Shown piece after piece: positions 1,563 through 17,697 of a DNA stretch of 64,000 bases. Numbering within the stretch: the first letter of the stretch is position 1; every line of letters starts with the position of its first letter. The notes beneath the pieces are model-generated. The model had not been told where the DNA came from. It saw only the letters and a program-made list of their open reading frames with translations, and searched no databases. The stretch comes from Betaproteobacteria bacterium (GTDB taxonomy: Bacteria > Pseudomonadota > Gammaproteobacteria > Burkholderiales > Thiobacillaceae), in contig JACRAU010000023.1 of assembly GCA_016234655.1 (NCBI GenBank), positions 42,066 through 106,065 of the forward strand. The letters run 5' to 3'. The position numbers and the translations under genes are program-made.

Positions 1563-4500
1563 ATGAATATAAAGCGGCAATGGCAGGCAATCATAATGCT
1601 CTCGCTTGCGGTGGGTATGGCTGGGCCGCTAAGGGCAGAGACCGTGACCGCCAGCGTGACGGTAGGAACCAGCCCCATTGCGGTTGCCGTCAATCCGGCC
1701 AGCGGCTGGGTCTATGTCGCGAACAATGGCAGCGCCAACGTCAGCGCGATTAATGGTGCGACTCATGCCGCCAGTGCTATCGCGGCGGGCACCAGCCCAC
1801 GCGCCATCGCTGTCAATCCCGCGACCAACCGCATCTATGTCGCGAACAACGGCAGCGCCAACGTCACCGTGATCGACGGCAGCGACAATTCCGTGGTGAC
1901 CACTGTCGCCGTGGCAAGCACGCCGCGCGCCATCGCGGTCAATACGGCCACCAACAAGATATACGTGGCGAACGAGGGCGGCGATAGCGTGTCGGTGATC
2001 GACGGCGCGACCAATACCGTGGTGGCCACACCCGCGGTCGGCGATCAGCCGCGCGCCATCGCGATCAATCCGGTTACCAATAGGATTTATGTCGCGAATT
2101 TCAATGGCGATAGCGTGTCGGTGATCGACGGCGCGACCGATACCGTTTCCGCCACGATCACGGTGGGTGCCGACCCAGTGGACATTGCAGTGAATCCCGC
2201 CACCAATAAGATTTATGTCGCGAACAATACCGGTGACAGCGTTACGGTCATCGATGGTGCTACCAATTTCACAACCACCATCGCTACCGGTAATGATCCG
2301 GAGGCGCTGGTCGTCAATCCGGTCACCAATCGGATTTACGTGGCGAACGATACTGCCAATGGCGTGGCGGTAATCAATGGCGATACCAATAGCGTCATCA
2401 CCACGGTCGCAGTTGGCACTGCCCCTCGTGCGATCAGCCTCAATCCCGCGACCAACCGGATCTACACCGCGAACTTTACCGGGGACAACGTCACGGTGAT
2501 CGACGGCGCGAACAATAGCGTCGCCGCCACGCTCACTGCCACCAACGGCACCCAGGCCATTGCCGTCAACCCGGCGACCAACCAAGTCTATGCCGCCAAC
2601 AACTTGGCGGTCGGGGGCGTCTACAGCGTCACGGTGATCGACGGCGCCACCCATGCCATCGGCACCATCGCGGCAGGGACTCGGCCTACCGCCGTGTCGG
2701 CCAATCCGGCCAGCAACAAGATCTACGTCACCAACTACACGGCTGGCAGCGTCACCGCTATCGATGGCGCTACTGACGCCACCAGCACCATCAGCGTCGG
2801 TGCCAGTCCACGCGACATCGCCGTGAACGCGGCGACCAACCGAATCTATGTGGCCAATGAGGGCAGTGCCAATGTCACGGTGATCGACGGCGCTGCCGGT
2901 ACCGTCACGGCCAGCGTCGCCGTCGGCAGCGGTCCGCGTGCCCTTGCCGTCAACCCGGCCACCCACCGGGTCTACGTGGCGAACAACTTCGGCAATAGCG
3001 TGAGCGCGATCAACGGCACGACCAATGCGGTTGCCGCCACCATCGCCGTGGGCACCAACCCGCAGGCGATCGCCGTCAACCCGGCCAGCAACCGGATCTA
3101 CGTGGCGAACTGGGGTAGCGCCAATGTCACCGTGGTCGATGGCGCAAGCCATACCGTCGCCGCCACGGTCGCGGTTGGCACCAGCCCGCGCGCGATCGCG
3201 ATCAATGCCGCCACCAACCGGATCTACGTGGCGAACGAAGACAGCGACAACGTCACCGTGATCGACGGCAGCAACAATACCGTCGTCACTACGGTCTTGG
3301 TCGGGGATGCGCCCGGTGCTATCGTCGTCAATCCGGTCACGAACAAAATTTTCGTCGCGAATAACGGCAGCAACAATGTCACCGTGATCGACGGTGCGAC
3401 CAACGGCGTCGTTGCGACGCTCGCGGTCGGCACGGGGCCGAGTGCAGTGGCCGTGAATCCGGCCAGCAATAAGATTTACGTGGCCAACTATGGCAGCGCC
3501 AACGTCTCGGTGATCGGCGGCATCGGCACCAGCGTCATCGCCACCTTAAGCGCTGGCACCAACCCCAATGCGGCGGCGGTGAACCCGGCCGGCCACAAGG
3601 TCTATGTGGCGAATTGGGGCAGCAACAACGTCACCACCGTCACCGAAAAGGCGGACGAGGCGATTCCGCTCACGGTGACCGTAACGCCGCTATCCGGCAA
3701 CGTCACGACCAGTTCGACCCCGACCCTGACCCTGACCGCCACCAGCGCCTTCTCGCCGACGGCGCCGCCGGTGCGAGGGGTATATTTCCAGGTGGACAGC
3801 CTGCAAGGCACATGGAGCAAGGCCACGGCTGCGGGCGGGGCCAATTGGAGCGCGAGCACTGCCAGCCTGACCCCTGGCCGGCATCTGCTATACGCCTTTG
3901 CGGTCGATGGCCAGGATGCCAGTTCCATCAATCTCAGCGCTCCCGTGCTCGGCAGGGTGGCGGTCTACACCTTCTCCGTCGTGGCCGCCCCCACGGCGAC
4001 GCTTTCGCCTTCATCGCTGAGTTTTGCCGACCAGATATTGTCCACCGCCTCGACCGCGCAAACGGTGACTCTGAGCAACAACGGCGGCGGCACGCTCAAT
4101 ATCTCCGCCATCGAGTTGACCGGTGCAAACGCCGCCGACTTCGCCCGCACCACCGCTTGTGGCGCGACGTTGGCAGGTGGGGCAAGCTGCACGATCTCGG
4201 TCACCTTCACGCCCAGCGCGGCCGGTGCGCGCAGCGCCAGCCTGAGTGTCAGTTCGGATGCGAGCGGCAGCCCGCATTCCATCAGCCTAGGCGGCACCGG
4301 TATTCTGTCTCCGGCGGCGGTTGGGCTTTCCCCTGCCACGCTCGACTTCGGCAGCCAGACAACCTCGACCACCCCGGCGGCGAAGACAACCACGCTGAGC
4401 AACACGGGCGGCAGCACGCTTAATATTTCCGCCATTTCGATATCCGGCACCAATGCCGCCGACTTTGCCCGTACCACCGATTGCGGCGCGACCCTGGCCG

Positions 4501-6050
4501 GCGGTGCGAACTGCACGATTTCGGTCACCTTCACGCCCAGCGCGACCGGTAGCCGCAGTGCCAATCTGTCGGTGAGTTCGGATGCCACGGGCAGCCCGCA
4601 TGTCGTGGCACTCTCCGGCTCGGGGGTCTCTCCACCCCCGCCGCCGCTGCCGCCACCCCCGTCGCCCGTGCCGGTGCCGGGCGATGTGACCTATCAGCCT
4701 GTCGGTTCGGTTACGAGCGTGATACAAAACGCCGGCAGCAACGTCGAGTTGTCGGCAAATGGCGTGCTTGTCGTGAAACCCGGTATCCCCACAGCCTTGC
4801 TGCTCAACGAAAGCGCGCAGGCCAATGTGCTGATCTCGCTGCCCAGCCAGGAGACGGTCAGCTTCGTCATCGGTCGCTCGGTGCTCGATTTCAGGTCATC
4901 GAACGACACCTTGTTGCAGGTTGCCAAGGTCAACGGCGCCACGGCCTTGAGGGTGGTGCAAGGCGAGGCCAGGATAGCGGGGACGGTGTCCGGCCAGGCC
5001 ATGGTCGCGGTCGGCTTCCACACGGCCTTGCTCACCACCGAAGAAGTCAACACGGTCGTCCTGGTCAGCCGCGAAGGTGAAGGCTGGGTGGTGGAGGTCG
5101 ATCAGGGCAAGGTATCGGTCCAAAGCGAGGGACAAGGCGACACGACGGCGGTTTTCTCCGGCGAGTTGTTGAACTTCGGCAGCCGGGGCGAATTGAATGC
5201 CATACAGCTCGGTTCGAAAGCCGGTCGTCACAACCATGCCGGCGACCCGCTGGATGTGCTTGCGGTTGCCAGCGGCGGCCAGACCACATCGTTGACGATC
5301 CAGCCGATCATCCCCAACCTGAACGGCAGTCCGGCCCGTTTGGGCGGCCAGTCGCTAATCGATACCATCGGTGCCATCGTGAAAGGCAGCGGCATCCAAA
5401 CCTCGCTCGGCGTGCTGCGGCTGACCTTCCCCGGTGGCGTCGTCGCCAATGCCTTGCCATTGGGCAGCATACCCATCGACGTTAGCCGCAAGGACGGCAT
5501 GACCGTACTCGCCAACGGCAATGTCGAGGTGGTCAAGTCCGGCATCGTGGTCACTTTTACTCCGGCCGTGTCCGACCCCGGTGACTTTGCCCGGCGGGCG
5601 GCGGCCTTGAATACGCAAGGCAGCGCCTCCAGCACCCTCTTGTCGAATGGCGTGCTCCATACCACCATCGACGGTACGCTTTATATCCTGCGGCCGGAGT
5701 GGACTGTCACGCTCGGCGGCCAGGGGCAGGCTGGCTTCAGCATCGATGCCACGGGCCGCGTGGTCTATCGGAATGCGGCCGGTAATGTGCAGGTACTCAA
5801 TCCGGTGATCGCCGATTACGCACGCTTGGCCAGTATCGTCAAAAGCCTGGATCCCAATGCGACACTGAGCGACAACGGCAATGGCTCGGCGACTTTGCGC
5901 CTGCCGAATGCAACTTACAAGCTATTGGCGGACTATGTGCTGACCCAGCCGACCGCCGAACAGATGCGATGGGATTGGTGGTCGGACGGCAAAGGTCGTA
6001 TCTTCGTCAACAATAGTGACGGCAAGGCGCAGGGTTTCCTGGTGCACTGA
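1563..6050 (+). CDS. Giant secreted repeat protein: signal peptide, 16 YVTN beta-propeller repeats, two HYDIN/choice-of-anchor-D-like domains, poly-Pro linker, ~480-aa unknown C-terminal region
   Basis: 1495-aa ORF; N-terminal signal (MLSLAVGMAGPLRA/ET); 16 repeats of N(R/K)IYVAN-x-GS-x-NVTVIDGATN; duplicated LSN-GG-TLNISAI...CGATLAGGA-CTISVTFTP module; PPPPPLPPPPSPVPVP linker. Confidence 0.9.
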   Translation: MNIKRQWQAIIMLSLAVGMAGPLRAETVTASVTVGTSPIAVAVNPASGWVYVANNGSANVSAINGATHAASAIAAGTSPRAIAVNPATNRIYVANNGSANVTVIDGSDNSVVTTVAVASTPRAIAVNTATNKIYVANEGGDSVSVIDGATNTVVATPAVGDQPRAIAINPVTNRIYVANFNGDSVSVIDGATDTVSATITVGADPVDIAVNPATNKIYVANNTGDSVTVIDGATNFTTTIATGNDPEALVVNPVTNRIYVANDTANGVAVINGDTNSVITTVAVGTAPRAISLNPATNRIYTANFTGDNVTVIDGANNSVAATLTATNGTQAIAVNPATNQVYAANNLAVGGVYSVTVIDGATHAIGTIAAGTRPTAVSANPASNKIYVTNYTAGSVTAIDGATDATSTISVGASPRDIAVNAATNRIYVANEGSANVTVIDGAAGTVTASVAVGSGPRALAVNPATHRVYVANNFGNSVSAINGTTNAVAATIAVGTNPQAIAVNPASNRIYVANWGSANVTVVDGASHTVAATVAVGTSPRAIAINAATNRIYVANEDSDNVTVIDGSNNTVVTTVLVGDAPGAIVVNPVTNKIFVANNGSNNVTVIDGATNGVVATLAVGTGPSAVAVNPASNKIYVANYGSANVSVIGGIGTSVIATLSAGTNPNAAAVNPAGHKVYVANWGSNNVTTVTEKADEAIPLTVTVTPLSGNVTTSSTPTLTLTATSAFSPTAPPVRGVYFQVDSLQGTWSKATAAGGANWSASTASLTPGRHLLYAFAVDGQDASSINLSAPVLGRVAVYTFSVVAAPTATLSPSSLSFADQILSTASTAQTVTLSNNGGGTLNISAIELTGANAADFARTTACGATLAGGASCTISVTFTPSAAGARSASLSVSSDASGSPHSISLGGTGILSPAAVGLSPATLDFGSQTTSTTPAAKTTTLSNTGGSTLNISAISISGTNAADFARTTDCGATLAGGANCTISVTFTPSATGSRSANLSVSSDATGSPHVVALSGSGVSPPPPPLPPPPSPVPVPGDVTYQPVGSVTSVIQNAGSNVELSANGVLVVKPGIPTALLLNESAQANVLISLPSQETVSFVIGRSVLDFRSSNDTLLQVAKVNGATALRVVQGEARIAGTVSGQAMVAVGFHTALLTTEEVNTVVLVSREGEGWVVEVDQGKVSVQSEGQGDTTAVFSGELLNFGSRGELNAIQLGSKAGRHNHAGDPLDVLAVASGGQTTSLTIQPIIPNLNGSPARLGGQSLIDTIGAIVKGSGIQTSLGVLRLTFPGGVVANALPLGSIPIDVSRKDGMTVLANGNVEVVKSGIVVTFTPAVSDPGDFARRAAALNTQGSASSTLLSNGVLHTTIDGTLYILRPEWTVTLGGQGQAGFSIDATGRVVYRNAAGNVQVLNPVIADYARLASIVKSLDPNATLSDNGNGSATLRLPNATYKLLADYVLTQPTAEQMRWDWWSDGKGRIFVNNSDGKAQGFLVH
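1644..3645 (+). repeat. 16 tandem ~41-42-codon YVTN-type coding repeats
   Basis: Counted 16 (Y/F)(V/T/A)(A/T)N cores at regular spacing in the translated ORF; periodicity also visible at nucleotide level. Confidence 0.85.
3994..4626 (+). repeat. Tandem duplication of a ~100-codon Ig-like (HYDIN/choice-of-anchor-D-like) domain
   Basis: Two adjacent copies with near-identical blocks (NAADFARTT-CGATLAGGA-CTISVTFTPSA-G-RSA-LSVSSDA-GSPH). Confidence 0.8.
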
Positions 6051-9953: not shown

Positions 9954-10043
9954 GTAGGGCGGCTTCGCGCAGCAAGCCGCCGAATGGAAGAATCCGACAC
10001 ATCTCATACGGCGCAGTGCTGCGCGACTGTGCCCTACAGCTCT
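9954..10043. repeat. REP doublet, left copy (two inverted ~29-nt GTAGGGCG...CGCCG units)
   Basis: gtagggcggcttcgcgcagcaagccgccg ... cggcgcagtgctgcgcgactgtgccctac; about 85-90% identical by eye to 17606-17697 in the same orientation. Confidence 0.75.
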
Positions 10044-10044
10044 G

Positions 10045-10323
10045 GTGTTGCTCTACTGGCAGATCGGGCGCGACATTCTGGCGCGGCAGGCCGAGCAAGG
10101 CTGGGGCGCGAAGGTGATCGAGCGGCTGGCGCAGGACCTGCGCACCGCTTTCCCGGACATGAAGGGGCTTTCACCGCGCAATCTCAAGTACATGCACGCC
10201 TTTGCCGAGGCGTGGCCGGATGAGGGATTTGTGCAAGAGGTGCTTGCACAATTGCCCTGGTACCACCAATTGGCGCTGCTGGACAAGCTGCATGGCCTGG
10301 CACAAAGCCACCACCCCAGCTAG
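10045..10323 (+). pseudogene. Remnant of a DUF1016 (YhcG-like, PDDEXK nuclease family) gene, truncated at both ends
   Basis: LLYWQIGRDILARQAEQGWGAKVIERLAQDL...GLSPRNLKYMHAFAEAWPD matches only the N-terminal DUF1016 region; family N-terminus absent; ORF ends after ~90 codons, no nuclease domain. Confidence 0.7.
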
Positions 10324-10446: not shown

Positions 10447-12564
10447 ATGACCAGCTCAACCAAGACATACCTCGAACAAGCTCTAGAAGATGGCCTTGCC
10501 AAGATTACAGGCGAAGGCAAAACCCAGCGAATTCACTACATCGCCGCCGATCATTCCGAGCGCTATTCCGACCCCGAGGAAAAGGTTCGCGCCGAGTTCT
10601 GGGCTGAGCTGATCTACAAATACGAATACAGGCCGGAGCGAATCGGGTTTGAGGTCAAGGTAGAGCGCCGCACCCCTGACGATAAGGCTGATTTGGTGAT
10701 CTACGCCGATGACGAAATGAAAGACCGCTATTTCGTCTTCGAATGTAAGCGTCCCGACATTAGTGATGCGGAATTCGCCCAGGCCATCGAACAAGCTTGC
10801 GGAAATAGGGCCAGCCTTGGAGCCAAATATGCAGGTGCCATCGCCGGCCTGACTCGCCGACTCCTCCGTTTTGATGATCCGAAAAAATTCCCTTCGGGTG
10901 AGCGTCAAAGAAACCGGATCGCGGATATACCGCTGCGCTATGGGAAACCGCCATCAAGCCGGTTTTTCAAAGGTGGGGTTCGCTATGAATTCGGGAAACT
11001 TGTCAAAGCCTCGGATTTGCCAGCCATTCCTCGGGAAGCGCTTCGATCCGCTATTCGCAAATGCCATCAAACATTATGGGAAGGTGGTCGCCGCAGTCCT
11101 ATTGCGGCCTTCGGCGAGTTTTGCAAGCTGGTCTTCGTGAAACACCGCGATGAAAAAGACCCGGACCGTCACGATGGCGTGCCCTACGAATTCCAAACTC
11201 GTGAAGATGAAACGCCTGAACAACTGGCCGCTCGTATCTACAGGCTGTATGACATTGAAAAGAGCGCCGACCCAACCGTATTCGAGGGGAAAATTAATGT
11301 CGATCCGCTCATTCTTGCGCAATGTGTGGAACACCTTGAAGCCATTTCCCTTGACCGAACTGAACTGGATACCAAGGGTGTGGCCTTCGAGGAGTTCATG
11401 GGGGGATTCTTCAAGGGCGACTTTGGCCAGTATTTCACGCCCCGCGAACTGATTGCTTTCGCGGTGGAAATATTGAACCCCGAGCGGAAAGACACGGTGC
11501 TCGACCCGGCTTGCGGTTCCGGGGGCTTTCTTCTCTATGCGCTTGACCATGTCCGTCGCGAAGCCGACCGCAAGAAAAAGCCCGGCACAATCGAACACTT
11601 TCAGTACTGGCACGACTTCGCCGAGAAGAACCTGTTTGGCATCGAGATCAACGAAGAACTGGCCCGTGTCGCCAAGATGAACATGATCATTCACGACGAC
11701 GGCCATACCAACATCGTCGGCCACGATGCGCTTGATCTATTCAAAGCGCCTCCGCCGAAGATGGATGCCGACGGGCGACTCATTGCGCCGCCGCCCAGAA
11801 CTTATCTCGGCGACCATAACGAAGGCATCAAGCCAGGTCGTTTTGACTTGATCCTGACCAACCCCCCCTTCGGTTCCGTCATCAAGCGCACAGAGAAGGC
11901 AGAAGGATACCTGGAGCAATTCGAGCTACGTAATTTCCTCTCGAAGAGCGCTACGGGTAGCGAGCCGGACGAATCGGAAAAAGGCGAGCAGGATGCCAAG
12001 CGCGGGGCCAAAGCCGTCAAGGACCGCGCCAGCATCAAGACCGAAATCCTGTTCCTGGAGCGGGTGCATTCTTTTCTCAAGCCAGGCACTGGGCGCGTTG
12101 CCATCGTCCTGCCCGACGGCATCCTCACCAACTCGTCGTTGCAAGGGGTGCGCGACTGGCTGCTGGATCATTTCCAACTGCTGGCCGTGGTGTCCCTGCC
12201 CCAGTTTGCCTTTGCCCACTACGACGCTGGCGTCAAAGCCAGCATCGTGTTCATGCGCCGATTGGCCGAGGATGAGGTGGTGTCCGACGACGCCCCCATC
12301 TTCATGGCTCTGGCCGAAAACATCGGCTACGACGCCACCGGGCGCAAGACCTTTGCCGTTACTCCGGTAAGCGAGACATCGGAAAAGGAAAAGGTCGAGA
12401 TTTTAAGTAGCGACCTATTCGATTACCGGGTGACCTACGAATGGAGCACCACCAACCCGAAGAAGCCGGATTGGAGCGAACGACATCGGGAGATCATTCC
12501 CGATACCGGGCTGGTTGCACAGTGGCGAGCATTTCAGAAGGACCCGACGTCTTTTTTCGTCTGA
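10447..12564 (+). CDS. N6-adenine DNA methyltransferase (HsdM-like, gamma class) fused to an N-terminal HsdR_N-type PD-(D/E)xK module
   Basis: 705-aa ORF; SAM motif VLDPACGSGGFLL, catalytic LTNPPFGS, FGQYFTPRELI; N-terminal ADLVIYADD...RYFVFECKRP resembles the D...E-x-K core of type I R-subunit N-terminal domains. Confidence 0.9.
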   Translation: MTSSTKTYLEQALEDGLAKITGEGKTQRIHYIAADHSERYSDPEEKVRAEFWAELIYKYEYRPERIGFEVKVERRTPDDKADLVIYADDEMKDRYFVFECKRPDISDAEFAQAIEQACGNRASLGAKYAGAIAGLTRRLLRFDDPKKFPSGERQRNRIADIPLRYGKPPSSRFFKGGVRYEFGKLVKASDLPAIPREALRSAIRKCHQTLWEGGRRSPIAAFGEFCKLVFVKHRDEKDPDRHDGVPYEFQTREDETPEQLAARIYRLYDIEKSADPTVFEGKINVDPLILAQCVEHLEAISLDRTELDTKGVAFEEFMGGFFKGDFGQYFTPRELIAFAVEILNPERKDTVLDPACGSGGFLLYALDHVRREADRKKKPGTIEHFQYWHDFAEKNLFGIEINEELARVAKMNMIIHDDGHTNIVGHDALDLFKAPPPKMDADGRLIAPPPRTYLGDHNEGIKPGRFDLILTNPPFGSVIKRTEKAEGYLEQFELRNFLSKSATGSEPDESEKGEQDAKRGAKAVKDRASIKTEILFLERVHSFLKPGTGRVAIVLPDGILTNSSLQGVRDWLLDHFQLLAVVSLPQFAFAHYDAGVKASIVFMRRLAEDEVVSDDAPIFMALAENIGYDATGRKTFAVTPVSETSEKEKVEILSSDLFDYRVTYEWSTTNPKKPDWSERHREIIPDTGLVAQWRAFQKDPTSFFV

Positions 12565-12599
12565 GCCCCGTCGTCGTAGGCGAAGCTCTATGCTTCGCG

Positions 12600-13964
12600 A
12601 TGCGACGGGGCAAAGCGGGACTTCGTTTTGACCCGAGCTTTCACCTGCCTAATCCTGATTTACCTGGGCAGTCGGGTTTCCCAATCAAGTTTGACGTAAA
12701 GTCTCTGGCGGCTTTGTGCTCCAACATAATTCAGCCAAACGAGTTCACCCGCGAATATACCGACGATTCTCCAGATTCCGTTGCGCTGATTCGCGCCGCC
12801 AACGTACGGGATTGCGAACTAGACCTTTCCGACTTGGTGTTTGTCGCTAAATCTAAGTTGGAATCTAAGTCATTCGACGCATCCTACATTAAGGAAGGCG
12901 ATATTCTAATTACGAGAACTGGAGCCAAGGCGGGCGAGACTTGCGTGGTGCCGCAGCTGAAGCGGGACTATATCGTTTCATCTCATTCAATCCGCGTTGT
13001 TCCTCGGAAGGAGGCGGTTGAATCGAGATATCTTGAAATGTTTCTAATCAGTCGTTGGGGCAAAGCGCAGGTGAATCGTCTTTTTACGGGCGCTGCACAG
13101 CCTCAACTACAGCTCTCTACCGTTAGCCAGCTTCAAATCTCGATTCCGCCCCGGGCCAAGCAAATTGACCTGATCGCTGCTATGGATGCGGCGCGGGTGG
13201 AGCGCTGGGCGAAGCTAGCCGAAGCTGACGCCCTGCTCGCAGGACTCGATGGCTACGTGCTGGAGGCCCTCGGCCTTACCCCGCCACCCAAGGATGAGCG
13301 CAAGGTATATGCGGTATCCAAATCCTCACTTGGCAGCCAATCGCGACTCAACGCCGATTACTTCCACCCTGAGCGCATCCTGGCACTTCGCGCCCTGGAA
13401 CATCCCATGCAACACCTGGATTGCCCTCGGTTAGAAGAGGTTGTGGGCTTCATCCGCGACCAGATCAAAACGCCCGGTCCCAACTACCTCAGTCTTGCCA
13501 ACGTGCAGAGCCATACTGGCGAACTCGTTCCTACGGACGAGAACGTAACCGGTGCCTGTTCCACATTTCAACGTGGCGACGTGTTGTTTGCCCGTCTGCG
13601 GCCATACCTCAACAAGGTTCACACGGCGGAAGCCGATGGCTGTTGCTCGCCGGAGTTCCACGTCTTGCGGATCAAGGATGCTGACGCACTTTCCCCGGAT
13701 TATCTGGCCGCCATCCTGCGTAGCAGCCTGACCTTGGCGCAAACCCGTCACATGATGACTGGCAACACCCATCCCCGATTGACGAATGAGGATGTGGTGA
13801 ATCTGGTCATCCCCGTGCCCAAACCAGCCATTCAGGAAATGATCGCCACCGAAGCCCGCCGCCGCCGTGAGGAAGCCCGTCGCTTGCGCGCCGAAGCGGA
13901 AGCCGGTTGGCAGGCGGCAAAGCGCTGGTTCGAGGAACAATTACTTGGGCCGGTGCAGCCATGA
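12600..13964 (+). CDS. hsdS: Restriction-modification specificity subunit (HsdS-like, two target-recognition domains)
   Basis: Two TRD halves each ending in a conserved helical spacer (QLQISIPPRAKQIDLIAAMDAA...; VNLVIPVPKPAIQEMIATEARRRREEARRLRAEAE...). Start set at the first ATG after the methylase stop; the track ORF begins earlier at 12441 inside the methylase gene. Confidence 0.8.
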   Translation: MRRGKAGLRFDPSFHLPNPDLPGQSGFPIKFDVKSLAALCSNIIQPNEFTREYTDDSPDSVALIRAANVRDCELDLSDLVFVAKSKLESKSFDASYIKEGDILITRTGAKAGETCVVPQLKRDYIVSSHSIRVVPRKEAVESRYLEMFLISRWGKAQVNRLFTGAAQPQLQLSTVSQLQISIPPRAKQIDLIAAMDAARVERWAKLAEADALLAGLDGYVLEALGLTPPPKDERKVYAVSKSSLGSQSRLNADYFHPERILALRALEHPMQHLDCPRLEEVVGFIRDQIKTPGPNYLSLANVQSHTGELVPTDENVTGACSTFQRGDVLFARLRPYLNKVHTAEADGCCSPEFHVLRIKDADALSPDYLAAILRSSLTLAQTRHMMTGNTHPRLTNEDVVNLVIPVPKPAIQEMIATEARRRREEARRLRAEAEAGWQAAKRWFEEQLLGPVQP

Positions 13965-15124
13965 TGTTCGAATTCCTGATTGCCTATCACCACGCCCCCG
14001 ACACCGAAATCGTCGAGGTGATCCGCGATGTTTTATCCAAGGTGTTGGAAGACAACCTCAATGAATTCGATGGTGAGGCGGTCGAGCGGATGGTGGTTCC
14101 AAGTCTGGAAAGGCCCGGCGACTATTTGGTGGGAGGGGATGGCGATGAGTTCCGCCGTGTGTTGTTCGGCTTCACCCTGGATTTGCCGGAAGAAACTGGC
14201 TCCATACGCACCGTGGTGGATGAGTTTTCGGAAGCCTTGAACACCGCCCCCGTCGTTCATCTGGTCAAGTTCGACGATCCCCTGATCCGGGCTGATCTGG
14301 CGCGTTGGGCGGATGAAATCTACGCCTTGGAAATGAAGTTGCGGCGGGTGCTGACGCTGGTCTATCTTCATGCTTATCAAGACGGTGATCCCTATGACTT
14401 ACTAAGCGAGGAAAGCACCCAGACCATCGCCAAGGAACGGCCGAAGCCCGAGCACATGAAGGACCGGGCGGAGAATCAATTTTTCCATCTGACCTTCAGC
14501 CAGTATGTCGGTCTCAACCGGCGACCAGAATTCAAGCTCCCTGAGTTACTGGAACTGATCCGTGACAAGGAGGCTTACGACGCCCTCCGCGAAGAACTCG
14601 CCCGCGCACCTGTGGAAGATGAGGACGACGCCGTATTGCTGGCAGGCCTCAAGGAACGCATGGAAGCCATCGAGGCCATGCGCAACTGCTGCGCCCACAG
14701 CCGCAGGCCATCCAAGAAGGTGATCGAGAACTACGACAACGCCCGGCCGTTGTTGGATCAACTCCTGGATAGTTACCTTGTCCGCTGGGAGTGGTCGGAA
14801 CCGGTGGAGGAAATGCCTTGGGATGCCGCCGCGCGGGAAGCCGTTGAGCATGCAATGGAGCATGCCCGCTGGGATGAAGAAAACCAGGAAATCACCCTGT
14901 TCGACGCCGACGACGACCGGATGCAGTGGACCGCAAGCGGCATAGGCGAGCTTCAAGACCAGTTGGCCCAGATTGCCGCGAGTGCCTTCTATGCCAACGC
15001 CCCAAGGGAGGGCGGCGAGTTTGTCTTCGAGTGTGACGAGTATGGGGTAGTCGAATCGGTACTTGATGACTACCGGGAACGACTAGAGGAATTCTTCAAA
15101 GCGCGCGATGACGCGGATGATTAG
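13961..15124 (+). CDS. Acidic HEPN/Abi_2-like protein (R-x4-H motif)
   Basis: ATGA overlap with the hsdS stop; FHLTFSQYVGL ... AIEAMRNCCAHSRRP matches the Abi_2/HEPN pattern (TFG-L ... RN-x-x-AH). The rest is unrecognised and strongly Asp/Glu-rich. Confidence 0.6.
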   Translation: MMFEFLIAYHHAPDTEIVEVIRDVLSKVLEDNLNEFDGEAVERMVVPSLERPGDYLVGGDGDEFRRVLFGFTLDLPEETGSIRTVVDEFSEALNTAPVVHLVKFDDPLIRADLARWADEIYALEMKLRRVLTLVYLHAYQDGDPYDLLSEESTQTIAKERPKPEHMKDRAENQFFHLTFSQYVGLNRRPEFKLPELLELIRDKEAYDALREELARAPVEDEDDAVLLAGLKERMEAIEAMRNCCAHSRRPSKKVIENYDNARPLLDQLLDSYLVRWEWSEPVEEMPWDAAAREAVEHAMEHARWDEENQEITLFDADDDRMQWTASGIGELQDQLAQIAASAFYANAPREGGEFVFECDEYGVVESVLDDYRERLEEFFKARDDADD

Positions 15125-15138
15125 GGGGTGAAGACATC

Positions 15139-16170
15139 ATGGCCATTTGGTTGATCCGCGCCGGTTCTCACGGCGAATACGAACAGAAGTTCATCCAGGA
15201 AAACCGCGTCTATGTGACCTGGGACGGCCTGGATGTGGACCTGGCCAAGCTCAAGCAGCGGGCCGACCTGACGGCGGCGATGACCGAGCGTTACCCGGAC
15301 ACTAAGCCGAGGGCGATCATGAATTGGGTGAGCCAGGTCTGGCCGTTTGCCCACGAAATCAAGAAGGGCGACTTGGTCGTTCTGCCGCTCAAGACCCAGC
15401 CGGCAATCTACATCGGCGAAGTGACCGGCGACTATCAGCCTGCGCCTGGTGGGCCTAATCCCTTCTACCACTGGCGGGCGGTGAAGTGGATTGCCGAGGG
15501 CGTGCCGCGTAGCAACTTCGGCAAAGATTTGCTCTTCACCTTCGGTGCCTTCCTGACCATCTGCCGGGTGCAGCGGAACAATGCCGAGCAGCGCATCGCC
15601 GCTATGCGCGCCAATGGTTGGAAGCCGGAAACCGCTGCCGCTACGACCAAGGCGACTACCCAGGCAACCGACGAGGTGGCCGAGGATACTGACCTCGAAG
15701 AGCTCGCCCGTGATCAGATCGCCGACCTGATTGCGGCCCGCTTCAAGGGGCATGGCCTGACGCGCCTGGTGGAAGCGATTCTTCAGGCACAGGGCTATAC
15801 GACCTACCGAAGCCCCGAGGGGGCGGACGGCGGAGCGGATATTCTGGCCGGTTCCGGGCCACTTGGCTTTGGCGCGCCGCGTCTCTGTGTCGAAGTGAAA
15901 TCCGAGTCTGCGCCGATTGGCCGTGAGCCGGTGGACAAGTTGCTGGGGGCCATGACCAAATTCAACGCCAGCGAAGGGCTCTTTGTGGCCTGGGGTGGTT
16001 TCAAGGGCAATGTGCAGAAGGAGCTGGCCACGCAATTCTTCCGCCTGCGCCTTTGGACACGCAAGGAATTGCTGGAGCAGTTGTTCGAGCAGTACGACCG
16101 GCTAGACGAGGACTTGAAGGCCGAGCTGCCACTGAAGCGCGTTTGGATGGTGGCGGCGCAGGAGGAGTAG
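15139..16170 (+). CDS. Mrr-cat family restriction endonuclease with an uncharacterised N-terminal domain
   Basis: C-terminal GADGGADILA...PRLCVEVKSES (D...E-x-K) and FVAWGGF typical of the Mrr catalytic domain; N-terminal ~150 aa (MAIWLIRAGSHGE...KKGDLVVLP...YHWRAVKWI) of unknown fold. Confidence 0.85.
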   Translation: MAIWLIRAGSHGEYEQKFIQENRVYVTWDGLDVDLAKLKQRADLTAAMTERYPDTKPRAIMNWVSQVWPFAHEIKKGDLVVLPLKTQPAIYIGEVTGDYQPAPGGPNPFYHWRAVKWIAEGVPRSNFGKDLLFTFGAFLTICRVQRNNAEQRIAAMRANGWKPETAAATTKATTQATDEVAEDTDLEELARDQIADLIAARFKGHGLTRLVEAILQAQGYTTYRSPEGADGGADILAGSGPLGFGAPRLCVEVKSESAPIGREPVDKLLGAMTKFNASEGLFVAWGGFKGNVQKELATQFFRLRLWTRKELLEQLFEQYDRLDEDLKAELPLKRVWMVAAQEE

Positions 16171-16247: not shown

Positions 16248-16790
16248 TTAAACCCCCGCCGGCAGCTTGGCCGCCATCATCTTCCTCCGGTCCAGCTTGT
16301 CGCCGTCGACGATGAAGGTGCCGTCGCCCACCGCGTGCAGCGTGCGCTTTTCCTTGCGCGCCGTGTTCTTGTAGGCGGCCACGCCTTCCAGCACGATGAG
16401 GTTGTGCTTTCTGACCATGTCGACGACCCGGCATTCGATGTTGGCCAGGCATTCCTTGATCAAGGGCGCCTTGACGATCTTGCCCGGCTCGGGCGTGAGG
16501 CCGAACTTGGCGAACTTGTCGGTGTCGGCGCCGGAGCGGGTGCCGATGCCGACTACCTGGTCCAGCAGGTCGACGGTGGGGATGGCGATGACGCACTCCC
16601 GGTGCTTGCGCAGCGCGGCGAAGGAGTAGTTCCAGGCGCCGGTGCAGATGCCGAACGCCGGCGTGAAGTCCAGCACCATGGTCCAGGAGAGGGTCATGAT
16701 GTTGTTCTTCTTGCCGTCATGGGTGGTCACCAGGACGACGGGTCCGGGTTCCATCAGGGTAAAGGCCTTGCCAAGTTCCATCTCACGCAT
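16248..16790 (-). CDS. Flavin reductase-like FMN-binding protein
   Basis: 180-aa ORF; PGPVVLVTTHDGKKNNIMTLSWTM and overall split-barrel flavin reductase domain pattern. Confidence 0.85.
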   Translation of the reverse strand: MREMELGKAFTLMEPGPVVLVTTHDGKKNNIMTLSWTMVLDFTPAFGICTGAWNYSFAALRKHRECVIAIPTVDLLDQVVGIGTRSGADTDKFAKFGLTPEPGKIVKAPLIKECLANIECRVVDMVRKHNLIVLEGVAAYKNTARKEKRTLHAVGDGTFIVDGDKLDRRKMMAAKLPAGV

Positions 16791-16938: not shown

Positions 16939-16968
16939 TTGACAACGCATCGCCGGCGTTGTCACAAT
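16939..16968 (+). promoter_or_regulatory. Putative sigma70 promoter (TTGACA-18 nt-CACAAT) overlapped by a 9-bp inverted repeat operator
   Basis: TTGACA 16939-16944, CACAAT 16963-16968; perfect inverted repeat TGACAACGC (16940-16948) / GCGTTGTCA (16956-16964). Confidence 0.4.
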
Positions 16969-16975
16969 GTCCAAC

Positions 16976-17272
16976 ATGAAAGCCGTGCAGCTCGTCTCGA
17001 CGCGCATCTCATACTCGGAAGTGGCCTTTGCCGAGCTCGTGCTGTGGCGCTTGCCTCAAGCCGTGGAGGGGTCGGCCCATGGCTTCAAGTATCGGCTTGC
17101 CTACGTGGTGCGTGGCGAATGTGTTCTTCGTTACGACAACGAGGTTGGGAAAGGCGATCATCGGCATGTCGGCCGAATTGAAAGCGCCTACACCTTCACG
17201 ACCCCGGAGAAATTGATTGCCGACTTCCAACGTGACATTGAGAGGTGGAACGATGAAAACCGTGACGCTTGA
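16976..17272 (+). CDS. DUF6516 (TumE-like) putative toxin of a TA pair
   Basis: HGFKYRLAYVVRGECVLRYDNEVGKGDHRH block characteristic of DUF6516. Track ORF starts at ATG 16967, which overlaps the putative -10, so ATG 16976 (MKAVQL...) is preferred. Confidence 0.65.
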   Translation: MKAVQLVSTRISYSEVAFAELVLWRLPQAVEGSAHGFKYRLAYVVRGECVLRYDNEVGKGDHRHVGRIESAYTFTTPEKLIADFQRDIERWNDENRDA

Positions 17273-17600
17273 CGTTCGCTCGCCCTCCGATGCGATGGCG
17301 GACTTCACCCAGGCCTGGAAAACGGGCAAACCGCAACGCTCCGCCCGTATCAGTTTTGCCACGCCCGAGCTGCTTTGGAAGGTGCTTACCGAAAAGCGCT
17401 GGGAGCTACTGAAGGCATTGTGCGGGGCCGGCCCCATGTCGATTCGCGAGGCGGCCCGTCGCGTTGGCCGTGACGTGAAGGCTGTTCACGGCGACGTAAC
17501 GGCGCTGTTGAATGCCGGTGTGCTTGATCGCACGGAGGACGGCCAGATCGTTTTTCCGTTCGAGGCCGTGAAAGTCGAGTTCCTTTTGCAGGCGGCATAG
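17253..17600 (+). CDS. HTH DNA-binding protein, putative cognate antitoxin/regulator
   Basis: Overlaps the upstream gene by 20 nt; winged-HTH segment MSIREAARRVGRDVKAVHGDVTALLNAGVL; start at MKTVTLDV preceded by gagaggtgg. Confidence 0.65.
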   Translation: MKTVTLDVRSPSDAMADFTQAWKTGKPQRSARISFATPELLWKVLTEKRWELLKALCGAGPMSIREAARRVGRDVKAVHGDVTALLNAGVLDRTEDGQIVFPFEAVKVEFLLQAA

Positions 17601-17605
17601 CACTT

Positions 17606-17697
17606 GTAGGGGCGGCTTCGCGTGGCAAGCCGCCGAATGGAAGAATCCGACCCTTACATACGGCGCAGTGCTGCGCGACTGCGCCCTACGGCTCTAC
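17606..17697. repeat. REP doublet, right copy
   Basis: gtaggggcggcttcgcgtggcaagccgccgaatggaagaatccgac...cggcgcagtgctgcgcgactgcgccctac; direct repeat of 9954-10043. Confidence 0.75.

Follow-up and report, generated by a model that had tools for sequence, protein, structure and literature searches.

In the 64,000-nucleotide stretch of DNA analyzed here (contig JACRAU010000023.1 of a Thiobacillaceae bacterium; hereafter the window), a low-GC island of 7.6 kb, with a GC content of 55-59% inside compared with 62-67% around it, holds a restriction-modification (R-M) operon of four closely packed genes on the forward strand. We focused on the first two genes, which encode a 705-amino acid (aa) protein, M, and an HsdS-like specificity subunit, S, and which probably specify a restriction enzyme with nuclease and methylase fused in one chain. 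A preliminary description of this DNA had proposed that the M-S pair is a BcgI-type (type IIB) enzyme; the two genes that follow S in the operon, one for a putative HEPN protein (X) and one for an Mrr-like protein, are additions to that description. The operon and the parts of its products discussed below are as follows.

10447-12564, forward strand: gene M, the RM (restriction and modification) subunit, 705 aa; open reading frame (ORF) with Pfam HSDR_N_2 and N6_Mtase
10447-10881, forward strand: nuclease domain of M, residues ~1-145, placed by AlphaFold2 (AF2) fold, conservation, and BsaXI alignment
10651-10653, 10690-10692, 10741-10743, and 10747-10749, forward strand: codons of the catalytic residues E69, D82, E99, and K101, respectively
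11368-12288, forward strand: methyltransferase domain of M, residues 308-614 (Pfam N6_Mtase)
11503-11529, forward strand: motif I, DPACGSGGF, residues 353-361, invariant in alignments A1 and A4
11860-11871, forward strand: motif IV, NPPF, residues 472-475, invariant in alignments A1 and A4
12522-13964, forward strand (12522 the likely start; ORF open from 12441): gene S, with two Methylase_S stretches
13961-15124, forward strand: gene X, putative HEPN protein of the Abi_2-like kind, 387 aa (Pfam Abi_2 match below threshold; RNxxAH motif)
14681-14698, forward strand: RNxxAH motif of X, R241...H246
15139-16170, forward strand: gene for an Mrr-like restriction endonuclease, 343 aa (Pfam Mrr_cat)

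Architecture of M and its relationship to BsaXI

Read from its N terminus, M consists of a nuclease domain, a helical connector, and a gamma-class N6-adenine methyltransferase, followed at the C terminus by a beta-rich region that ends in a helix. Pfam placed HSDR_N_2 (PF13588), the PD-(D/E)xK family of the HsdR N terminus, at residues 43-128 with 37.7 bits against a cut-off of 25, a match that by its score exceeds chance, and N6_Mtase at residues 308-614 (expectation value (E) 3e-32), with ~300 residues ahead of the methylase. The preliminary description had quoted the strings ADLVIYADD, FVFECKRP, VLDPACGSGGF, and NPPFGS, all of which are present in the 705-aa ORF (residues 81-89, 96-103, 351-361, and 472-477, respectively). 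From these strings it had read a methylase with ~300 extra N-terminal residues, an intact-looking D...ExK core, and a gamma-class methylase in the same polypeptide, and we find this reading to be accurate: N6_Mtase begins at residue 308, DPACGSGGF and NPPF lie within it, and the match of the N-terminal region to an HSDR_N family, which the description had suggested looking for, exists and comprises the catalytic acidic and lysine residues.

A search of a 50%-identity representative library with residues 1-300 of M returned 696 clusters, and the conservation of the nuclease was followed in 70 full-length relatives with 32-66% identity to M. Residues D82 and E99 are invariant in the 68 aligned sequences from this set; conservation reaches 90% or more for E69 and K101, and likewise for E44, E45, and R48, and Q116 is kept in 58 of the 70. 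The conservation of the catalytic tetrad (E69, D82, E99, and K101) holds also in alignment A4 and extends across phyla. An AF2 model of M built on a diverse alignment reached a predicted local distance difference test score (pLDDT) of 88.2 and a predicted template modeling score of 0.84; an earlier run with 54 close homologues (pLDDT 61) had modeled little but the nuclease domain well. In the model, the nuclease comprises a helix (43-57), three strands (66-71, 80-86, and 94-100), a second helix (107-124), and a further strand (128-133), an alpha-beta-beta-beta-alpha-beta core with pLDDT >90. As modeled, this is the canonical PD-(D/E)xK core, and E69, D82, and E99-x-K101 fall on the strands where such residues are expected. 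At the other end of M, the model has beta strands at 637-684 and then a short helix, and the profile alignment shows that the protein ends ~65 residues past a conserved PIFMA.AE.IGY motif.

In the PDB, M is best matched by RM.BsaXI (E 1.9e-33 by phmmer). BsaXI is a type IIB enzyme that consists of this RM subunit (916 aa) and S.BsaXI (476 aa; PDB 8w0p, 8w2p, and 8w2q). The homology runs along the whole chain: the family profile A4 matched RM.BsaXI in one stretch (BsaXI residues 14-901, nuclease domain included) with an E of 1.4e-93, and a Foldseek search with the model of M returned the BsaXI chains on top (E 2.7e-27 to 1e-24; 698-865 aligned columns). In the same search, type I HsdM structures aligned over ~430-510 columns, covering connector and methylase only (E 1e-13 to 1e-18), and the type IIG enzymes BpuSI and DrdV aligned over 634-718 columns. 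We note that the nuclease homology emerged only with the family profile, and not with the N terminus as a single sequence; phmmer of the N-terminal 180 residues alone against the PDB gave chance-level matches only. In the profile alignment, E69, D82, E99, and K101 of M lie opposite E73, D90, E105, and K107 of BsaXI, so that the D...ExK core read earlier, with E69 in addition, aligns with residues essential for cleavage: PMC11997821 describes alanine mutants of all four BsaXI residues as having lost cleavage. The homologous BsaXI domain is a working nuclease. Overall, we conclude that BsaXI is the closest characterized relative of M among those tested; as to class, the preliminary assignment is favored by the type IIB RM+S features and the homology to BsaXI.

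Subunit S, the absence of HsdR, and the related loci

The PDB matches of S are type I S subunits and S.BsaXI, and Pfam recognizes two Methylase_S stretches in the gene. The expectation of an S subunit with two target recognition domains (TRDs) and 455 aa is borne out in the former respect but probably not in the latter. The ATG at 12600, the start behind the figure of 455 aa, gives 454 aa; however, homologues keep an N-terminal segment (V..IS.GPD.FFRLSP) that begins ~40 nt ahead of the stop codon of M, and, because this extra segment is conserved, comparison of the sequences indicates that the GTG at 12522 is the likely start, yielding a protein of 480 aa and a 43-nt overlap with M.

The lack of an HsdR gene, which the preliminary description had sought to explain, stands. 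No HsdR candidate was found in the 64-kb window, where the ORFs of at least 700 aa are M, a glycogen phosphorylase-like gene, and a beta-propeller repeat protein, and no helicase or further methylase domain was detected in the other genes of the island. We compared 86 non-redundant related loci, 64 of which had enough sequence downstream of S for its neighbors to be recorded. An adjacent S is an obligatory companion of M: the gene immediately after M is S in 79 of the 86 loci, and, of the seven loci without an adjacent S, six have less than ~700 bp after M, and in one (L084) S was not detected. No ResIII/Helicase_C gene was present in eight related contexts annotated with Pfam. Further, when 64 long ORFs flanking other loci were scanned with Pfam in two pools of 32, with the 25 commonest families listed, no HsdR family was matched by two or more ORFs in either pool, a format from which a single occurrence could escape.

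In five loci (L085, L086, L023, L026, and L045), the M ORF also contains S sequence (for example, at 9998-13204 in L085 and 10004-13210 in L086). The fusion of L085 (1069 aa, from Poribacteria), which was fully checked, has HSDR_N_2, N6_Mtase, and Methylase_S in one chain, which is the layout of AloI; Pfam gave no Methylase_S domain in the fusion ORF of L023 (922 aa). Alongside the two-gene loci, the L085 fusion mirrors the two forms, RM+S and single-chain RMS, known among type IIB enzymes. The family as a whole exceeds 7996 clusters at 90% identity (E <= 1e-10), and identity is at least 73% in the top 120. It is present in at least 498 species-level genomes, and members are known from Proteobacteria, Cyanobacteria, Chloroflexota, Acidobacteriota, Planctomycetota, and other groups; the related loci often lie on integrase-bearing islands. 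In two loci from long-read metagenome assemblies (L093, ~4142-4163, and L095, ~4096), the nuclease and methylase parts are in different frames, and the break falls at nearly the same spot in both, at residues ~196-205 on the nuclease-connector boundary. An assembly error or gene decay could explain this, as could a switch by which restriction is uncoupled from modification.

Gene X, the Mrr-like gene, and the rest of the island

The start codon of X overlaps the stop codon of S (ATGA). Its conserved motif, MRNxVAHNR, has the Rx4H signature of HEPN RNases, as judged from the aligned sequences: R241 and H246 are invariant in a 36-sequence alignment (A5), and the Asn of the motif is replaced once among 19 locus-derived homologues. 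The Abi_2 match of X lies below the Pfam cut-off (E 2.3e-4; 22 bits against 25.6), 11 of the 36 homologues match Abi_2 at E <= 0.01, and a profile search of the PDB with X gave no match. We found 341 homologues of X, and those with a name are all called "hypothetical protein." X directly follows S in 21 of the 64 loci, usually starting at the S stop codon, and it directly follows the M-S fusion ORF in four of the five fusion loci. Many X homologues appear to share contigs with the M homologues listed, and three more, chosen as not obviously sharing a contig with a listed M, all lie right after N6_Mtase and Methylase_S genes. Because its homologues sit right after M and S genes, X looks like a dedicated, optional partner of the RM+S family. 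Anantharaman et al. (2013, PMC3710099) had already placed HEPN proteins of the Abi2/AbiD/AbiF group "embedded in R-M operons," and the idea of a PrrC-style "second line of defence" is likewise in the literature; X beside an RM+S pair is a new instance of this known theme.

The Mrr-like gene starts 14 nt after X and has a clear Mrr_cat domain (E 2.4e-23; 82.9 bits against a cut-off of 21); it matches the PADLOC model PDC-S02 with 520 bits, and a PDB search with its product gave no match. We considered this gene as the core nuclease of the system and rejected it, as it follows M-S in only 4 of the 64 loci, all close relatives. Its product is probably a separate nuclease, type IV-like and dependent on modification, and the gene is carried along with the cassette. 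In 43 of the 64 loci, neither of these two genes was detected after S. Other defense-like genes were seen after S when X is absent (L004, 13540-15419; L006, 11646-14808; and L011, 13548-16670). They encode, for example, an AAA_21 ATPase together with an uncharacterized protein of 273 aa; a Pkinase/FHA protein; or an uncharacterized protein of 225 aa, after which come an Mrr-like gene and a reverse transcriptase. The position behind S thus looks like a hotspot at which accessory genes vary.

The remaining features of the island are as follows.

9957-10043, forward strand: left copy of a ~87-nt direct repeat, left border of the island
10045-10323, forward strand: fragment of a DUF1016_N (YhcG-like PD-(D/E)xK) protein, Pfam E 2.9e-25, profile positions 23-104 only
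16248-16790, opposite strand: flavin reductase, right end of the island
16967-17272: TumE-like toxin gene, E 3.5e-13
17217-17600: HVO_A0114 DNA-binding gene, E 3.4e-30
17610-17695: right copy of the ~87-nt direct repeat, right border of the island

The flanking repeat is made up of two segments, 9957-9998 and 10005-10043 in the left copy, which match their counterparts 7653 nt away with 95% identity each; it occurs in two copies and no more in the window, with none expected by chance, and is partly palindromic. The repeats may be duplicates of an attachment site; no integrase was found inside the island, and a tRNA search found none at its borders. The DUF1016_N fragment abuts the left repeat and is devoid of the first ~22 profile positions and of the entire nuclease half, and it is no part of the RM enzyme and probably the leftover of an older defense gene. 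At the right end, adjoining the flavin reductase, the TumE-like gene overlaps the HVO_A0114 gene, and the two look like a toxin-antitoxin pair. A scan of the operon for promoters and terminators gave no signal above chance. Unrelated to the RM system, the window also encodes, at 1563-6050, a secreted-looking 1495-aa protein with many YNCE/lactonase-type beta-propeller repeats and Ig-like (ASH/HYDIN-type) domains.

Interpretation and comparison with known systems

Reviews of type IIB enzymes describe an N-terminal PD-(D/E)xK domain and, distal to it in the same RM protein, a gamma-class N6-methyladenine (m6A) methylase with an NPPF/Y/W motif; a two-TRD S subunit or domain; neither a translocase nor a companion methylase; and cutting on both sides of a bipartite site. 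Cleavage releases a fragment of ~27-34 bp and takes place with Mg2+ and S-adenosylmethionine (SAM), without ATP; S is either separate, as in BcgI and BsaXI, or fused in a single-chain RMS protein, as in AloI. The first four of these features, namely the fusion of nuclease and methylase, the gamma-class methylase, the two-TRD S, and the lack of a translocase or companion methylase, are found in the window system. We consider it likely that M and S constitute a self-contained, translocase-free, two-subunit restriction enzyme of the type IIB RM+S kind, in which nuclease and methylase share one chain. This kind is already known, because BcgI-like systems have been recognized in genomes before, as in the case of HP1471/HP1472 of Helicobacter pylori.

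If the enzyme works like BsaXI and BcgI, one two-TRD S would be bound by a pair of 705-aa RM proteins to give an (RM)2S complex, in which S would read a bipartite target and each RM subunit would methylate, with SAM, an adenine in one half-site and so protect the host DNA. Unmethylated DNA would be cut by the N-terminal PD-(D/E)xK domain (E69, D82, E99, and K101) at a fixed short distance from the site, with Mg2+ and without ATP, and most likely on both sides. We are less sure of strictly two-sided cutting than of the fusion of restriction and modification because M is devoid of the paddle of BsaXI.

Several points weigh against this reading. The top PADLOC model for M (residues 36-605) is labeled "Type I methyltransferase," and the databases name its family "type I restriction enzyme M protein," "restriction endonuclease subunit M," or "N-6 DNA methylase"; biochemical data for M or close homologues were not found. 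The likeness to BcgI was drawn from architecture and size class. According to PMC11997821, cleavage by BsaXI also needs residues of its C-terminal paddle, but M has neither paddle nor knob, and its cleavage geometry may therefore differ. Further, a distant, unlinked HsdR might be encoded outside the 64-kb window. Finally, the best NCBIfam models of M and S are MAD2 and MAD5 of the methylation-associated defense system (MADS; mad1-8), so M-S pairs of this lineage can serve multi-gene systems that have other effectors.

The last point leads to the idea that M and S are an M2S methylation module of a larger multi-gene defense system with X, the Mrr-like gene, or other downstream genes as effectors, and that the nuclease-like domain of M has a sensing or minor role, as in MADS. 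The M and S proteins match PADLOC mad2 and mad5, X is translationally coupled to S and found only beside such M-S pairs, and elsewhere other genes, such as those for the AAA_21 ATPase and the Pkinase/FHA protein, take the place after S. The MADS scores are, however, far under the curated cut-offs (303.6 against 720 bits for MAD2 and 125.1 against 400 for MAD5), and the locus is without the remaining mad genes, the kinase gene among them, with no mad matches by PADLOC among the neighboring genes, although MADS requires mad2-4 and mad6-8. Membership of the window system in MADS is ruled out by these scores and by gene content. Nor would a multi-gene module account well for the 43 of 64 loci in which neither X nor the Mrr-like gene follows S, or for a nuclease tetrad that is invariant with or without an accessory gene, and we regard this explanation as improbable. 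Equally improbable, in our view, is that the pair acts as an orphan type I-like methyltransferase whose activity is limited to methylation, with epigenetic regulation or protection as its role, and in which the PD-(D/E)xK fold persists as a DNA-binding or structural domain. Such an origin is conceivable in that solitary M+S pairs without HsdR exist as remnants of type I systems, the databases annotate the family only as methylases, and the nuclease part is out of frame with the methylase part in L093 and L095. Yet four catalytic residues conserved across phyla at 32-66% identity are unexpected for a domain without catalysis, the homologous domain of BsaXI cleaves DNA, and the family resides on mobile low-GC islands with integrases and other defense genes.

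There is also very little likelihood that the window holds part of a classical type I system whose HsdR gene lies elsewhere in the genome. The window spans no more than 64 kb, and the connector and methylase fold of M resemble type I HsdM, but no HsdR gene was found in the eight annotated related contexts, no HsdR family recurs among the 64 long flanking ORFs, and classical HsdM has no N-terminal nuclease and aligns with M only from ~residue 270. Because the nuclease domain of M is itself of the HsdR-N type, a separate HsdR nuclease would be redundant.

Under the preferred reading of M and S as an RM-fusion enzyme, the locus is probably a complete restriction system. M and thousands of its relatives are called "type I M subunit" or "N-6 DNA methylase," and under such names a locus without HsdR resembles an orphan methylase; reading it as complete alters how such loci are counted in censuses of defense systems. 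Type IIB enzymes are useful reagents (2b-RAD), PMC11997821 counts 28 of them in REBASE, and a family of such size and diversity, its S subunits being swappable, would provide new specificities. Further, with the putative HEPN partner X, the family offers a compact system for the idea that an R-M enzyme guards an abortive-infection RNase, an idea that rests mainly on PrrC. The interest of the locus lies mainly in the size of the mis-annotated family and in this dedicated partner.

Of the known systems, BsaXI shares with M the order of PD-(D/E)xK nuclease, multi-helical connector, and gamma-class m6A methylase, and shares with the window system a separate two-TRD S of similar size and the lack of a translocase. 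The identity between M and RM.BsaXI is only about 20-23%, and M differs in having no knob insertion (BsaXI ~626-742, opposite a profile gap at ~628-740) and a beta-rich region with a short helix in place of the long C-terminal two-helix paddle; X, coupled to the window enzyme, has no counterpart mentioned for BsaXI in the accessible text of PMC11997821. The "RM, Type I-like" group of type IIB enzymes (BcgI, BaeI, SdeOSI, HpyUM032XIII, and Hso63250II) pairs an RM protein of 626-680 aa with an S subunit. M, with 705 aa, resembles this group in the RM+S plan, in size, and in having neither knob nor paddle; its C terminus, with predicted beta strands and a helix, differs from the lone helical tail of the group. 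S.BcgI has 341 aa, and the S of the window, with 480 aa, is longer. With type I systems (HsdM/HsdS/HsdR, e.g. EcoKI), the window system shares an HsdM-like connector and methylase fold, an HsdS-like S, and a nuclease from the HsdR N-terminal family, but it has no HsdR or superfamily 2 translocase, and the nuclease is fused to M. MADS is an eight-gene operon, compared with three to four genes at the window locus.

The parallel for X is EcoprrI-PrrC, where a HEPN-motif gene likewise lies inside or directly after the M-S genes. PrrC has an ABC-ATPase domain, whereas X has none, and EcoprrI is a type Ic system, whereas X stands beside a translocase-free RM+S enzyme. By this analogy, X would be a second-line RNase that the RM-S complex restrains, much as EcoprrI restrains PrrC. 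We tentatively suggest, as a possibility that we would not yet favor, that the family is a phylum-spanning, uniformly mis-annotated RM+S clade with a HEPN partner in about one-third of its loci, in which the three proteins work as one machine, an RNase gated by RM-S that fires when a phage disables restriction. If so, RM-S-X would be a minimal, motor-less counterpart of EcoprrI-PrrC.

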